The notes under the pieces were generated by a model, which did no database searches, was not told the DNA's origin, and saw only the letters and a program-made list of their open reading frames with translations. Below are positions 10,748 to 15,914 of a DNA stretch of 64,000 nt, piece after piece. Made by a program: the position numbers and the translations under genes. Each line of letters begins with the position of its first letter. Within the stretch, counting starts at the first letter, position 1. Source of the DNA: Patescibacteria group bacterium (GTDB lineage Bacteria; Patescibacteriota; Patescibacteriia; Patescibacteriales; JAQTRU01); contig JAQUPG010000003.1 of the NCBI GenBank assembly GCA_028716725.1, positions 11,512 through 75,511 of the forward strand, given 5' to 3'.

Positions 10748-10844
10748 GTTACAAATTACAAATCTTACACAAATATTACAAATAATTAGAAAAAACGACT
10801 ATCTTAACATTTGTAAAATTTGTAATGTATTTGTAATTTGTAAC
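10748..10844. repeat. Inverted heptamer-word array (TACAAAT / ATTTGTA)
   Basis: The left arm 10748-10783 (gttacaaattacaaat...) is an imperfect reverse complement of the right arm 10809-10844 (...atttgtaatttgtaac). Confidence 0.8.
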
Positions 10845-10862: not shown

Positions 10863-11402
10863 ATGAAAGACTTCTTATCTTTAGTAAAATCAAGGCGAAG
10901 CGTAAGGCAGTACAGGCAAGAGAAGATTCCGCGAGACCAGATTGAAAAAATAATTGAAGCCGGCACTTGGGCGCCCAGCGCCTTTAACCAGCAGCCGATT
11001 AAGTTTTTTGTTTTAGAAGATTCGGCGAAAATTAAACTGGCCGGAGAAAAAATAAGGGAAATGAGAAAGAAGGCCGGAGAAAATATCTGGCGCCAGGAAC
11101 TGCCTGACCCGACTTTTTATCAGGCACCAGCCGTAATTTTTCTCTGCGTCAGCGAACCGAAAAATAAATACGCTTTAGCCGATGCCGCCCTTGCCTGCCA
11201 AAATTGCTTATTGCAGGCAAGAGAAATGGATTTAGCCACGGTTGTTGTCGGCCAAGCGACAATGCTCGAAGAAATCCCAGAGGTAAAAGAAAAGTTGGGC
11301 CTGCCAAACAATTGGGAAATCTTACTTTCTTTCTGCTTAGGTAAAACCGATAGTTTCCCGGAAGCGCCGGAAAGAAAAAAGCCGGAAGTTATATTTAAGT
11401 GA
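10863..11402 (+). CDS. Nitroreductase-family protein
   Basis: RRSVRQY...APSAFNQQP motif. The ATG at 10863 is preferred over the TTG at 10854. Confidence 0.8.
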   Translation: MKDFLSLVKSRRSVRQYRQEKIPRDQIEKIIEAGTWAPSAFNQQPIKFFVLEDSAKIKLAGEKIREMRKKAGENIWRQELPDPTFYQAPAVIFLCVSEPKNKYALADAALACQNCLLQAREMDLATVVVGQATMLEEIPEVKEKLGLPNNWEILLSFCLGKTDSFPEAPERKKPEVIFK

Positions 11403-11415
11403 ATAGTATTTATAC

Positions 11416-11587
11416 TGTCATTGCGAGGCTCCGCCCTTCTTTTCCTATCATTGCGAGAAGCGTAGCGACGAAGCAATCTAACGCACAATGATTTTCATCT
11501 AAAGATTACATTTTGTGCCTGCGCATCATTCGTTAGATTGCCGCGTCAGTCGTCCCGAAGGCTCGGGACTCCTTCCTCGCAATGACA
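11416..11587. mobile_element. MITE-like nested-hairpin element with TGTCATTGCGAGG termini
   Basis: Terminal inverted repeats are tgtcattgcgagg (11416-11428) and cctcgcaatgaca (11575-11587). Internal IRs include gcaatctaacg/cgttagattgc and the hairpin GTCCCGAAGGCTCGGGAC (11552-11569). Confidence 0.6.
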
Positions 11588-11596
11588 AAATAAGAA

Positions 11597-11659
11597 GGCA
11601 AAACCGATAGTTTTCCAGAAGCGCCGGAAAGAAAAAAACCAAAAGTGGTGTTTGAGTAG
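11597..11659 (+). pseudogene. Displaced duplicate of the nitroreductase 3' end
   Basis: Encodes GKTDSFPEAPERKKPKVVFE*, against GKTDSFPEAPERKKPEVIFK* at 11340-11402. A hand alignment gives 51/63 nt identical. Confidence 0.7.
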
Positions 11660-11715
11660 AGATTATCAGGGAGACAGCAAATTAAATGGACTTTACTGGG
11701 GGGGTATCTTTGATG

Positions 11716-11764
11716 TTGACATAATTCTTAGTTTGATATATAATTACTCTTAGTTAGAGTAATT
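11716..11764 (+). promoter_or_regulatory. Consensus promoter plus operator-like palindrome for the 11783-13098 cassette
   Basis: TTGACA (11716-11721), 17 nt, TATAAT (11739-11744). The 9-bp perfect arms AATTACTCT (11742-11750) and AGAGTAATT (11756-11764) overlap the -10 and the transcription start. Confidence 0.6.
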
Positions 11765-11782
11765 TATTTTTAATAAAAAAAT

Positions 11783-12376
11783 ATGAAAAAAATCAAAGCT
11801 AAGTTAAGGGTCATTGTAAAGGCTAATGATCAAATTATAGCCGAATCAGAAGACCCTATTTTATGGCGAAAAGTACTTTCAACTATGACGGGCGCTAATC
11901 CTTTGAGCGAGTCATCAGGCCAAAATTTAGACTCAGATGAACCCCTGGAAGATGACGGAGATGGCGCGATTGATAGATTTGCCAAAACGATTGGAGTTAC
12001 AAAAGAAGAATTAATTGGCGCATGTGACCCTTCGATGAAAACACCATATATTGGATTAGATAGTCGATACTGGGAATCCATAAAGAAAAACACCCCTGAA
12101 CGGGGCCCAAAATCTGTGTCGGTTACAGTATTAGCCTTAACCTTGCTAAACCTTTGGTCAGAAGTTGCCAAACTTCCCAGACCAACAATAAAATTATCAA
12201 AAACCGTGACAAACACGATTAATCTTGTGGATGCGAACATATCTAGAACGATTAAAAATTGCGAATGGCTCCAAATGAAATCTGATAAAATAATTACGCT
12301 GAACCCCGCACAACATTCAAAAGCAGTCGCTATAGCAAAGGCTTATTGTACTAAAAAAGCACCCGAATATAAATAA
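11783..12376 (+). CDS. Hypothetical protein, AT-rich cassette gene A (acidic linker plus wHTH-like C-terminal domain)
   Basis: 197-aa ORF with no family recognised. The C-terminal segment (VLALTLLNLW...ANISRTIKNCEWLQ) resembles the N-terminus of gene B. Confidence 0.55.
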   Translation: MKKIKAKLRVIVKANDQIIAESEDPILWRKVLSTMTGANPLSESSGQNLDSDEPLEDDGDGAIDRFAKTIGVTKEELIGACDPSMKTPYIGLDSRYWESIKKNTPERGPKSVSVTVLALTLLNLWSEVAKLPRPTIKLSKTVTNTINLVDANISRTIKNCEWLQMKSDKIITLNPAQHSKAVAIAKAYCTKKAPEYK

Positions 12377-12381
12377 ATTTT

Positions 12382-13098
12382 ATGGATGAAGTTAATTTTC
12401 TGAAAAAAATTGCATCTGAAAAACTAAAAAATATTGACAAAGCCGTAGCATTAATTTGGTTAACTCGTGCTAACTGTACACATGACGGCTTAACTGCAAG
12501 GGATATATGTAATTTTTTTGAAAACGCAGGATACGGCAAACAGAATGTTACAATTATAGAAAAAAACTTAAAAAAAGATCCTCGAGTAGTAAAAAATTCT
12601 AGGGGGCGGTTTATTATACGAGAAAAAAGAATGGATGATGTTGGTGCGTCATTTGTGGCATATTTAAAAAATAAACCTATACCGCAATCTGAAAGTATTC
12701 TTCCTGATGATATCTTTAATAATTCAAAATATTATATCAAAAGGGTAATTGAACAAATAAACGCCAGCTATGATTACAGCTTATTTGATTGCTGCGCGGT
12801 GATGTGTAGACGGTTATTAGAAACTTTAATTATTGAAGTATATGAATCATACTCGAGATCAGATGAGATAAGAAATATTGATGGAAATTTTTTAATGTTT
12901 TCGGGTTTGTTGAATTATCTTAAAAAAGATAAAACAATAAATGTCAGTAGAAATGGCATTCTTGGCTTGGAAAACTTTAAAAAATTAGGAGATTTGTCAG
13001 CGCACAACAGAAGGTTTAATGCAAAGCAGAACGATATTGATAGAATAAGAGACAGTTTAAGAATTGCTAGTGAAGAATTAATTAATTTAAAAAAGTAA
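12382..13098 (+). CDS. Hypothetical protein, cassette gene B: wHTH-like N-terminus plus DUF4145/HEPN-like C-terminus
   Basis: 238 aa. The C-terminal pattern CCAVMCRRLLETLIIEVYE ... FKKLGDLSAHN..F...QNDIDRIRDSLR matches the A.m.R..lE / lR..GN.aaH layout I associate with DUF4145. Confidence 0.5.
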   Translation: MDEVNFLKKIASEKLKNIDKAVALIWLTRANCTHDGLTARDICNFFENAGYGKQNVTIIEKNLKKDPRVVKNSRGRFIIREKRMDDVGASFVAYLKNKPIPQSESILPDDIFNNSKYYIKRVIEQINASYDYSLFDCCAVMCRRLLETLIIEVYESYSRSDEIRNIDGNFLMFSGLLNYLKKDKTINVSRNGILGLENFKKLGDLSAHNRRFNAKQNDIDRIRDSLRIASEELINLKK

Positions 13099-13107
13099 AA
13101 TAGTTTT

Positions 13108-14394
13108 ATGGAAATAACAAAAAAAGAACTAGAAAAATCACAAATTGAACTGACGGTGGAATTATCTTTGGCCGAATTCAAGCCCTATATAGAAAAAGGC
13201 GTGAAAAAGGTGAGCGAGGAAATAAAAATAGAGGGCTTTCGGCCGGGCAAAGTCCCGTTTAATGTTTTAAAGCAAAAAATCGGGGAGATGACGATTCTGG
13301 AAGAAGCGGCGCAGATTGCCGTTAACAAGACGATTGAAAAAATTTTGGCGGATAATATAGATAAGCAGATAGTGGGACAGCCGCGGGTTGATATTATAAA
13401 ACTGGCTCCTGACAACCCTTTGGTTTTTAAAATTACCTTGTCGGCCCTGCCGGACGTAAAGCTTAGTGACTATAAAAACGCTAAAGTAAAAAGAGAGGAG
13501 AAAGAAATAAAGGACGAGGAAGTAAAAAAAATAATGGATAACCTAAAGGAAATGCGGGCAACAGAGGCAATCGTTGATAGGGAAGCAAAAGAAGGCGATA
13601 AGGTTATTATTGATATAGAAATGTTTCGGGATAACGTGCCTTTGGAAGCCGGGCAAGGAAAAGGCACGGCCGTTATTTTAGGCAAGGATTATTTAATCCC
13701 GGGCTTTGACGCGAAACTGGCCGGCATAAAAAAAGGCGATACAAGGGAATTTGACCTGCCTTATCCAGCCGACCACTACGATAAAAACCTGGCCGGGAAA
13801 TTAGTCCAGTTTAAAGTAAAGGCGAAAGAAATTTTTGAGCGGCAGGTGCCGGAAATAAACGACGAGATCGCTAAAGCCTTTGGCGCCAAGTCCGCCGAGG
13901 ATTTAGAAAAAAATATCCGAAAGAACCTGGAAGAGGAAAAGAAGCGGGAATCCGAGCAGGAACTGGAAATTAAAATTATTGATAAAATTTTAGCTAAAAC
14001 CAAGTTCGGGGATATTCCGGAAGTCTTAATCGACCACGAAGCCGAATCTATGCTGGCCGAGCTTGAGCATACGGTTACGCATCAGGGCGGGAAATTTTCC
14101 GATTATCTCGCGAGCTTAAATAAAACCCGGGACCAGCTTACGCTTGAACTCCTGCCCAACGCCATTAAGCGGGTAAAAAGCGCCCTGGCCATCAGGCAGA
14201 TTGCCATAGAGGAAAAACTCTCGGTTGATGAAAAAGAAATTGATGAAAAAATCGAAGAACTTTTAAAGCAATACAAAGGATACGAAAAAGTCGAGGAACG
14301 GGTTAAAGACCCGTCTTACCGGCTTTACCTTCACAATTCATTGATTAACAATAAAGTGGTTGAGAAATTGAAAGAGTGGAACACGGAGAAGTAA
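13108..14394 (+). CDS. tig: Trigger factor
   Basis: 428 aa with an N-terminal ribosome-binding GFRPGKVP motif and a central FKBP-type PPIase region. Confidence 0.9.
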   Translation: MEITKKELEKSQIELTVELSLAEFKPYIEKGVKKVSEEIKIEGFRPGKVPFNVLKQKIGEMTILEEAAQIAVNKTIEKILADNIDKQIVGQPRVDIIKLAPDNPLVFKITLSALPDVKLSDYKNAKVKREEKEIKDEEVKKIMDNLKEMRATEAIVDREAKEGDKVIIDIEMFRDNVPLEAGQGKGTAVILGKDYLIPGFDAKLAGIKKGDTREFDLPYPADHYDKNLAGKLVQFKVKAKEIFERQVPEINDEIAKAFGAKSAEDLEKNIRKNLEEEKKRESEQELEIKIIDKILAKTKFGDIPEVLIDHEAESMLAELEHTVTHQGGKFSDYLASLNKTRDQLTLELLPNAIKRVKSALAIRQIAIEEKLSVDEKEIDEKIEELLKQYKGYEKVEERVKDPSYRLYLHNSLINNKVVEKLKEWNTEK

Positions 14395-15089: not shown

Positions 15090-15476
15090 GGGGATGCCAG
15101 GCATCGATAATGAGATTTCTTTCTAAACATTCCGGACGTGGCCGCGGGCTATTCACGTAAAACTGGCCCGCAAAATTCAAATGTCAACACATTTGTAAGC
15201 AAGGTCAAAACGGCTTTTGCCAGTTTGGCCTTTGCTCCCGCTATCGCTTAATAAAGCCATAGCCATCCGGCCGGTCGAGTCTTCATAGCCGGTACCGGGT
15301 GTCATTAATGAAGATAGATTTATAAATCGTTCTCGCTTATAAATTAAAACCAAGAGAACTGGTTATTATTGATTTTGCTTTGTTTCTACGGTAATAACGA
15401 GAAAATAAATAAAGCTATTCCTGTAAATATGTTTAGAAGAACTTATTAGACGTGGGTTCGATTCCCACCATCTCCA
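15090..15476 (+). ncRNA. ssrA: tmRNA (one-piece)
   Basis: The 5' GGGGATG pairs with the 3' CATCTCC. T-arm is GTGGGTTCGATTCCCAC. The internal tag frame reads ...AAA ACG GCT TTT GCC AGT TTG GCC TTT GCT CCC GCT ATC GCT TAA TAA (..KTAFASLAFAPAIA**, stops at 15249-15254). It is adjacent to smpB. Confidence 0.85.
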
Positions 15477-15477
15477 C

Positions 15478-15557: not shown

Positions 15558-15914
15558 ATGACTAAGGAGGAGTTGAAGCAAAGAACAAAAAACTTTGCTT
15601 TAAGAGCTATAAAACTGGTTAATGCTTTGCCAAACACTATTGCCGGCAGAAATATAGGAAGCCAGCTGTTTCGTTCCGGAACTTCGGTGGCCGCAAACTA
15701 TAGGGCCGCCTGCCGCAGCCGATCCACCGCAGAATTTTTAGCTAAATTAAACACGGTTATAGAAGAAGCGGATGAAAGCCTGTTCTGGATTGAAATAATA
15801 AAAGAAAGTAAAATAATAGATGAAAACCGATTACATTCGTTATTAAAAGAAGCTGACGAAATAGTCGCCATAATGGTTGCTTCCAGAAAATCAGTTCAAA
15901 AAAACAATCAGTAA
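15558..15914 (+). CDS. Four-helix-bundle protein (23S rRNA intervening-sequence protein family)
   Basis: RSGTSVAANYRAA.R.RS..EF..KL..V.EEADES.FW signature. Confidence 0.85.
   Translation: MTKEELKQRTKNFALRAIKLVNALPNTIAGRNIGSQLFRSGTSVAANYRAACRSRSTAEFLAKLNTVIEEADESLFWIEIIKESKIIDENRLHSLLKEADEIVAIMVASRKSVQKNNQ

Follow-up and report, generated by a model that had tools for sequence, protein, structure and literature searches.

HEPN ribonucleases (RNases) are recurrent effectors in bacterial immunity and in toxin-antitoxin (TA) systems, and the DUF4145 domain is a recognised branch of the HEPN superfamily or clan (PMC3710099). In RAZR (PD-T7-4) the DUF4145 domain is an experimentally shown RNase effector, for which R146 and H154 are essential (PMC13017515), while further DUF4145 defence proteins include the BREX-associated BxaP (PMC10799925), the anti-plasmid protein Ishtar1 (bioRxiv 10.64898/2026.07.06.735840) and fusions of the domain to type I restriction subunits (PMC3710099, PMC3632139). 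Here we describe a 1.3-kb cassette of two genes, A and B, that lies directly upstream of tig in a metagenome-assembled genome of a Patescibacteria group bacterium (GCA_028716725.1). The window analysed comprises 64,000 nt of contig JAQUPG010000003.1 (11,512-75,511 of the forward strand), and positions below are those of the window. The cassette is one instance of a two-gene operon that is self-contained and has spread horizontally; A belongs to an unannotated family, and B is predicted to combine a winged helix-turn-helix (wHTH) with a HEPN domain of the DUF4145 type:

11783-12376, + strand: gene A, 197 residues, partner protein of an unannotated family
12382-13098, + strand: gene B, 238 residues, wHTH plus DUF4145-type HEPN protein
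13099-13107, + strand: B-tig junction, 9 nt from the stop of B to the start of tig
13108-14394, + strand: tig, with its ATG at 13108

This gene layout is the one given by an earlier sequence-only reading of the stretch, and the stop of A and the start of B are separated by 5 nt. Database records identical to the two proteins in the same genome (PHZ04_03650 and PHZ04_03655) are both named 'hypothetical protein'. The same reading had called the stretch visibly more AT-rich than its surroundings, and indeed its GC content is 0.28-0.36 over 11600-13100 as against 0.42-0.55 in the flanks, with the A-B module at 0.339 and the remainder of the window at 0.419 (34% versus 42%). The composition of the cassette is thus foreign-looking.

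With RAZR the B protein shares an effector domain in the DUF4145 branch of HEPN, a conserved His eight positions after a basic residue (R146/H154 in RAZR, K200/H208 in B) and a small N-terminal nucleic-acid- or protein-binding domain fused to the effector. However, RAZR consists of one gene only, whose product bears a Cys4 zinc ribbon, whereas B has a wHTH, no Cys4 and always a partner gene; its basic residue is Lys instead of Arg, it has no sequence-level match to a PDB chain or PADLOC model, and zinc ribbons occur here only in the C2 partner (see below) of Bacteroidales loci. The HEPN-MNT (HepT/MntA) type II/VII TA systems offer the same two-gene operon with the HEPN gene downstream of its partner, short or overlapping spacing and a sporadic distribution. 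Their partner is a minimal nucleotidyltransferase, whereas no Pfam family is matched by A or by 50 of its relatives and the A model has no nucleotidyltransferase fold, while B bears an extra wHTH and a K-x7-H rather than an Rx4H motif. The best structural matches to the C-terminal part of B, the AF_0298-type HEPN protein (2hsb) and SSO P95883 (2q00), are only about 10% identical to it in sequence; they are archaeal HEPN proteins that stand alone, with neither a wHTH nor a partner of the A type. BxaP, Ishtar1 and the restriction fusions likewise deploy DUF4145/HEPN as a conflict effector with varied fused sensor or regulatory domains, but these are HEAT-like, beta-rich C-terminal or restriction endonuclease/helicase domains, and none is described as a wHTH-DUF4145 protein with an A-type upstream gene. 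The wHTH antitoxins or autorepressors of abortive infection and TA systems, such as AbiEi, are typified by an upstream winged-helix gene and a palindromic operator over the promoter; A has no detectable Pfam or PADLOC sequence match and no structural match to them. No description of a wHTH-DUF4145 protein with an A-type partner was found in the literature searched. The A-B pair shares its effector fold with the DUF4145/HEPN systems and its two-gene layout with HEPN-MNT, and fails the defining features of each. That it matches no described system, as first suspected, holds for PADLOC and NCBIfam with both proteins and for Pfam with A, the Pfam match of B lying below the cut-off.

The A-B pair across genomes

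A and B had been read as one module, and their homologues do keep together tightly. A scan with two B peptide patterns through one genome per species, covering 185,579 species, gave 83 matches in 79 loci from more than 10 phyla. Among the loci that were testable, i.e. those with a B at least 40% identical and sufficient upstream sequence, 31 of 32 carry an A homologue (33-53% identical) directly upstream of B and in the same orientation, the two genes being separated by -20 to +31 nt; in L001 one extra wHTH-like gene stands between A and B. The hosts are spread over Desulfobacterota, Acidobacteriota, Gemmatimonadota, Planctomycetota, Verrucomicrobiota, Ignavibacteria, Alpha-, Beta- and Gammaproteobacteria, Actinomycetota, Rokubacteria and three Patescibacteria lineages, and include the cultivable Hydrogenophaga palleronii, Rhodanobacter soli, Lacimicrobium alkaliphilum, Parahalioglobus pacificus and Nocardiopsis yanglingensis.

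The flanks of the pair are unrelated from locus to locus, 134 neighbour proteins matching 144 different Pfam families, among them about 6 methyltransferases, 4 HNH proteins and 2 transposases as well as type IV secretion system (T4SS) coupling proteins. In 28 of 29 loci the GC content of the module is lower than that of its flanks, by a mean of 6.5 points. Decayed and fragmented copies, in which A and/or B is split, are present in L042 (7995-8733), L043 (7339-8725) and L044 (6633-8531), one of the decayed copies lying in the complete genome of Luteimonas granuli Gr-4. Integration linked to tRNA genes was considered and rejected, such genes being found in 4 of 31 loci and adjacent to the pair only in L027.

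At 24 loci with more distant B genes (28-43% identical), the place of A is taken by another family of partners, C2, whose Bacteroidales versions bear a double zinc ribbon at the N-terminus. That C2 and A are homologous was rejected, as hhalign finds no such relation; their likeness is one of architecture by eye only, namely a short N-terminal strand-helix, a low-complexity linker and a C-terminal wHTH-like domain. Directly downstream of the C2-B pair in L047, L056 and L078 (Bacteroidales and Clostridia) is a gene for a Vsr-like protein of 164-177 residues, followed in L078 by a gene for a 420-residue protein, and the scanned neighbours include C-5 cytosine methyltransferase matches without assignment to individual loci. 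It is no more than possible that C2-B is associated with restriction-modification or very-short-patch repair.

Domain architecture of B and A

The B family comprises more than 638 clusters at E<=1e-3, and typical homologues are 45-60% identical over the full length and come from Acidobacteriota, Desulfobacterota, Ignavibacteria, Chloroflexota and other phyla. The AlphaFold2 (AF2) model of B, with a predicted local distance difference test (pLDDT) score of 88.9, has two domains, the second of which holds the putative active site:

12382-12666, + strand: residues 1-95 of B, N-terminal wHTH of the order H-H-H-beta-beta-H (H, helix), from Foldseek
12706-13095, + strand: residues 109-238 of B, C-terminal HEPN-fold (DUF4145-related) helical bundle, from Foldseek and the PF13643 matches of relatives
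12979-13014, + strand: putative active-site motif K200-K-L-G-D-L-S-A-H208-N-R-R211, at a helix end and loop start

The relation of the C-terminal half to DUF4145/HEPN, first proposed from its helix pattern, is upheld by sequence and structure alike. PF13643 (DUF4145) is matched by 22 of 26 aligned B relatives (E<0.1; best E=1.7e-5), and P0003, 56% identical to B, carries a precomputed match to it. In Foldseek the C-terminal part of the model matches 2hsb with a probability of 0.99, a template modelling score (TMt) of 0.72 and a root mean square deviation of 2.6 A over 119 columns, and 2q00 with a probability of 0.89 and a TMt of 0.64. The B profile has no match among PDB sequences, B has none in NCBIfam, and PHROG gives weak matches of unknown function. 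Residues 17-79 locally match the DNA-binding domains of MarR, ArsR and FOXN1/FOXN3 (probability <=0.96, TMt <=0.64), and this N-terminal winged helix suggests nucleic-acid binding and a possible positioning of the effector. On the evidence of the model and the family, B is a HEPN-fold, DUF4145-related protein with a variant motif.

Residue conservation, counted over 73-78 homologues at 28-60% identity, singles out R143 (78/78), E147 (77/77), H208 (72/73) and K200 (70/72) as near-invariant; also kept in the C-terminal domain are D136, R144, E152, E155, G203, D204, S206, A207, N209, R210, R211, N213 and D218. The family motif reads FK-x-LGD-x-SAH-NRR, i.e. K-x7-H-N-R-R, with a variable K201 at x6 before H208 and with R210 and R211 right after it, and the conserved acidic residues E147, E152 and E155 lie in the helix 135-156. 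In the AF2 model H208 closes a helix just ahead of a loop, and the HEPN motif normally sits at a helix end before a loop (PMC3710099). K200 and H208 correspond in both position and spacing to R146 and H154 of RAZR (PMC13017515).

Given how unusual the K-x7-H-N-R-R motif is, and that a wHTH fused to the effector suggests nucleic-acid targeting, B might alternatively be an active HEPN-fold enzyme whose substrate is not bulk RNA but, for instance, DNA or a specific tRNA or mRNA reached via the wHTH, with A as a specificity or targeting subunit and not an inhibitor. The extra wHTH domains fused to some A-family proteins (P0228, P0240, P0249) would suit such a role. Yet all characterised catalytic HEPN domains are RNases (PMC3710099, PMC13017515), and we regard this alternative as very unlikely.

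The B-type HEPN domain is also found with other N-termini, in L037 (7071-8414), L077 (7296-8468), L073-L075, L062, L079, L065, L067 and L072. These N-termini are a truncated tyrosine-recombinase-like region in L037 and L077, and elsewhere coiled-coil regions or, in Nostoc beside a T4SS coupling protein, an unknown domain of 325 residues; the domain further occurs as a stand-alone protein of 171 residues.

Searches of Pfam, PADLOC, NCBIfam and PDB sequences returned nothing for protein A, whether it was queried alone or through a profile of 50 sequences. A word-indexed search retrieved 4 relatives and BLAST against the open reading frames (ORFs) of loci found through B many more, while an exhaustive profile search among 1.84 billion representatives delineates a family of 298 clusters (172 at E<=1e-30), whose members are nearly all of 190-225 residues. 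Its AF2 model (pLDDT 89.5) shows the acidic low-complexity linker and C-terminal domain that had been read from the sequence, preceded by a small N-terminal module:

11783-11890, + strand: residues 1-36 of A, N-terminal module, beta-hairpin plus helix, motif KAxLxVxLxAxxxVVAESED..LW
11891-11959, + strand: about residues 37-59 of A, acidic low-complexity linker, predicted disordered
11960-12373, + strand: residues 60-190 of A, C-terminal helical domain with a wHTH-like H-H-H-beta-beta-H unit at its end (residues 114-190)

In the model the N-terminal module consists of strands 10-14 and 17-22 and the helix 25-36. The linker, variable in length and sequence across the family, has a pLDDT of 49-58, falling below 50 at residues 44-53, and the C-terminal domain one of 91-98. 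In Foldseek this domain has weak matches to the winged helices of DtxR/IdeR, forkhead and MCM8 proteins, residues 114-173 showing the wHTH order of elements (probability <=0.57), and no viral structural match was found for the A model. The presence of wHTH-like modules in both proteins, proposed in the sequence-only reading, is thus borne out by the AF2 models and Foldseek, with weak matches for A; their proposed paralogy is not. The hhalign comparison aligns exactly the region that had been named (A122-190 versus B23-96), yet with a probability of 1.3% and a pairwise P=0.039, which is not significant, and the two regions share merely the H-H-H-beta-beta-H order of secondary-structure elements.

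Some A-family members (P0228, P0240, P0249, P0261 and P0275) have one or two added C-terminal wHTH domains. A-B fusion proteins were looked for and rejected, the long A-family members bearing these extra wHTH domains and not HEPN. In L084 (2598-4447; also L085 and L086) P0240, a protein of 348 residues, is such an A-family protein fused to an extra wHTH, and the gene 3 nt after it encodes a protein of 236-266 residues, not of the B family by hidden Markov model, with a helical N-terminal region containing 'RAIYKFRSDRGAVH' and a MarR-like C-terminal wHTH. The latter may be an alternative HEPN-like partner in reversed order.

Promoter, candidate operator and the slot upstream of tig

The cassette begins with a perfect promoter overlapped by a palindrome, both as first read from the sequence:

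11716-11744, + strand: consensus sigma-70 promoter, TTGACA at 11716-11721, 17-nt spacer, TATAAT at 11739-11744
11742-11764, no strand: operator-like perfect palindrome, AATTACTCT at 11742-11750, 5 nt, AGAGTAATT at 11756-11764

The promoter matches TTGACA-17-TATAAT at 12 of 12 positions, is the sole perfect match within the window and has no counterpart in 100 shuffles; the palindrome of 9+9 nt covers the -10 element and the predicted transcription start and is likewise unique within the window. In L003/L004, the homologous cassette most similar to this one (its A is 52% and its B 60% identical), both TTGACA-17-TATAAT and the palindrome recur, the latter lengthened to 13+13. Between the window and L003/L004 the -10 element and palindrome are identical at 30 of 32 positions, as compared with 67-69% for the coding DNA and 57% for the 60 nt upstream of the -35, and this far better conservation argues for selection acting on the candidate operator. 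In the wider family 22 of 29 homologous loci have a TTGAC no more than 150 nt upstream of A, mostly at -48 to -71, versus 14% of random windows, an enrichment which indicates that the pair brings its own promoter.

The location of the cassette was compared in tig relatives from a metagenome scan, whose tig is 48-89% identical. They share the conserved synteny NusA-(pyrophosphatase)-tig-SmpB-tmRNA-IF3, into which a variable slot opens ahead of tig:

11403-13105 of the window, no strand: variable slot from the nitroreductase stop to tig, holding A-B here and other or no cargo in relatives
L089 and L093: pyrophosphatase then tig with nothing between, 153 and 219 nt apart
L090 and L116: DHH-type pyrophosphatase (PpaC) directly before tig
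L102 (the closest, tig 89% identical): nitroreductase gene, 667-residue HTH_17-ResIII-Helicase_C protein, 83-residue zinc-ribbon protein
L100: two unknown genes upstream of tig, one product with an LRIRVVH motif
L088: small membrane proteins upstream of tig

The cargo lies at 551-2786 in L102, 91-1725 in L100 and 147-1333 in L088, and in PADLOC the 667-residue protein of L102 matches type IV restriction and PbeA helicases. At the DNA level the homology of the window with L102 ends at the nitroreductase stop codon and resumes 2 nt before the tig ATG, and homology to L100 likewise resumes 2 nt before it. Since the slot is empty or differently occupied in relatives and the break in homology spans the cassette, A-B is accessory cargo and not conserved at this locus, as the sequence-only reading had supposed. 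The description of an insertion beside the nitroreductase gene calls for caution, since that gene itself is outside the conserved synteny.

The cassette interior has only weak promoter-like sites (9-10 of 12), and no terminator-like site is found on the + strand before tig, in agreement with the earlier claim that tig has neither a terminator nor a promoter of its own. In L102 and L100 TTTGTAAT repeats stand directly upstream of tig, whereas in the window they are found only upstream of the nitroreductase gene. This suggests that tig has probably lost its native upstream region; given further that it starts 9 nt after B, it is probably read through from the cassette promoter. Only in this genome is tig downstream of the pair. 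Upstream of the nitroreductase gene (10748-10844) lies a 43-nt imperfect palindrome of TTTGTAA/TTACAAA repeats, the similar TTTGTAAT repeats being at about 2850-2895 in L102 and about 1740-1780 in L100, and repeats of this type may be a lineage-specific promoter or regulatory motif. Beyond the cassette, an Rfam scan of the region returned nothing except the downstream tmRNA and tRNAs. The tmRNA gene (15090-15477, tag GPQNSNVNTFVSKVKTAFASLAFAPAIA) is 2 kb downstream of the cassette and is followed by an ORF of 118 residues (15558-15914), which we take to resemble a four-helix-bundle protein of the 23S rRNA intervening-sequence type, and then by tRNA-Leu and tRNA-Gly.

Between the nitroreductase gene and the cassette is a further element:

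11410-11595, no strand: 186-bp element resembling a miniature inverted-repeat transposable element (MITE), with terminal inverted repeats TTATACTGTCATTGCGAGG / CCTCGCAATGACAAAATAA and an internal inverted repeat

It is present in a single copy in the window and is flanked by a 71-nt direct repeat (11339-11409 and 11596-11666, 80% identical) that duplicates the 3' end of the nitroreductase gene, so that its sequence gives the appearance of a MITE-like insertion by which the end of this gene was carried along or displaced. Direct repeats flanking the cassette were sought, and there are none, the 71-nt repeat belonging to this separate element. Such a neighbour and the duplicated gene end are consistent with A-B being an addiction-only module or a mobile-element accessory, which would stabilise or regulate a small integrative element and have no anti-phage role. 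To the same effect are the integrase directly upstream of the pair in L001, the tyrosine-recombinase-like sequence fused to the HEPN domain in L037 and L077, and the T4SS coupling proteins adjoining the Nostoc variants. However, in most loci the surroundings of the pair hold no integrase, transposase or tRNA, the plasmid and phage collections do not contain it and the cassette itself lacks flanking direct repeats, and this explanation appears quite unlikely.

Proposed function of the module and its significance

The features described above lead us to favour, with moderate confidence, A-B as a TA-like or defence-type conflict module with a HEPN effector; its genes lie side by side, point the same way and meet at a short or overlapping junction, which is the TA-type layout. 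We infer RNase activity and toxicity of B, its neutralisation by A, binding of the operator, a role in defence or addiction and co-transcription of tig, which could fit together as follows. B would dimerise via its HEPN domain, as HEPN proteins usually do, and would be a metal-independent RNase-type effector using H208 with K200, R210/R211 and R143, possibly positioned on nucleic acid by its own wHTH. A would bind B and keep it inactive, or sense a trigger, and one of the two winged helices would bind the palindrome over the -10 element, resulting in autorepression of the operon. If A were lost, or if phage infection or another trigger occurred, B would then be freed to cut RNA and stop growth. 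Phage or plasmid defence and addiction are each compatible with such a mechanism, and either role could be that of the module.

Several points weigh against this proposal. The canonical HEPN Rx4-6H is absent from B, which has L, G and D at positions 4-6 before H208 and Lys at x7; catalytic competence is plausible from the model, yet not assured, given this replacement of the canonical Arg by Lys. The B protein of the window scores only 13.1 bits (E=0.1) against PF13643, whose gathering cut-off is 23.1 bits, its residues 136-219 aligning to profile positions 12-80 of 88, and every Foldseek E-value for the full-length model exceeds 0.1, which we ascribe to the query having two domains. Neither protein matches any of the 5027 models of PADLOC-DB v2.0.0 (no family at E<=1), and both exceed the usual size of type II TA components. 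The pair does not lie in clear defence islands, most of the 134 neighbours being housekeeping genes, and searches of 72,556 plasmids, 50,697 phage genomes and IMG/VR yielded no copy of B. As for the operator, a similar inverted repeat arises in 8% of shuffles of a 110-nt AT-rich stretch, and in the family as a whole strong inverted repeats at the promoter show only a modest excess (6 of 33 loci, 1.65 expected), certain loci showing direct repeats around the -35 in their place. Since the operator is kept in L003/L004 but such repeats occur in 6 of 33 loci, autoregulation is likely for the sub-lineage of the window and L003/L004 and is not demonstrated as a trait of the family.

Several of these points speak for the main rival, a purely regulatory pair, in which A and B would be two winged-helix transcription factors controlling their own promoter and tig, and the HEPN-like domain would serve non-catalytic dimerisation or ligand binding, as in MtlR or nucleotidyltransferase substrate-binding domains. 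The wHTH-like modules in both proteins, the missing catalytic Arg, the existence of non-catalytic HEPN families (PMC3710099), the lack of a PADLOC match and of a strong defence-island context, and the position of tig directly downstream without its own promoter are all in keeping with it. On the other hand, H208 and many charged residues are near-invariant at 28-60% identity, beyond the usual needs of a dimer interface. The module moves among unrelated contexts with no conserved target gene, tig following it in this genome only, and its low GC content, decay (L042-L044) and mobility fit a selfish or defence element better. A purely regulatory role is thus unlikely in our estimation.

Returning to the conflict module, it is possible, though we hold it doubtful, that A-B and C2-B together define an undescribed, phylum-spanning two-gene HEPN immune or conflict family, in which a variant (K-x7-H-N-R-R) DUF4145 RNase, tethered to nucleic acid through its wHTH, would be controlled by interchangeable partners with folds not otherwise known, and whose cassette in this genome would have taken over the transcription of tig. 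Each new HEPN architecture has so far revealed a new mode of sensing or regulation, RAZR being an example. The A-B pair is compact, self-promoted and present in cultivable hosts, and its partner A has no annotated domain, which would make it an easy and informative system to study. For the Patescibacteria, the locus means that despite their tiny genomes they retain a variable cargo slot upstream of tig and, if the read-through into tig is true, that a gene of the essential type can be made dependent on a promoter brought by a mobile cassette.

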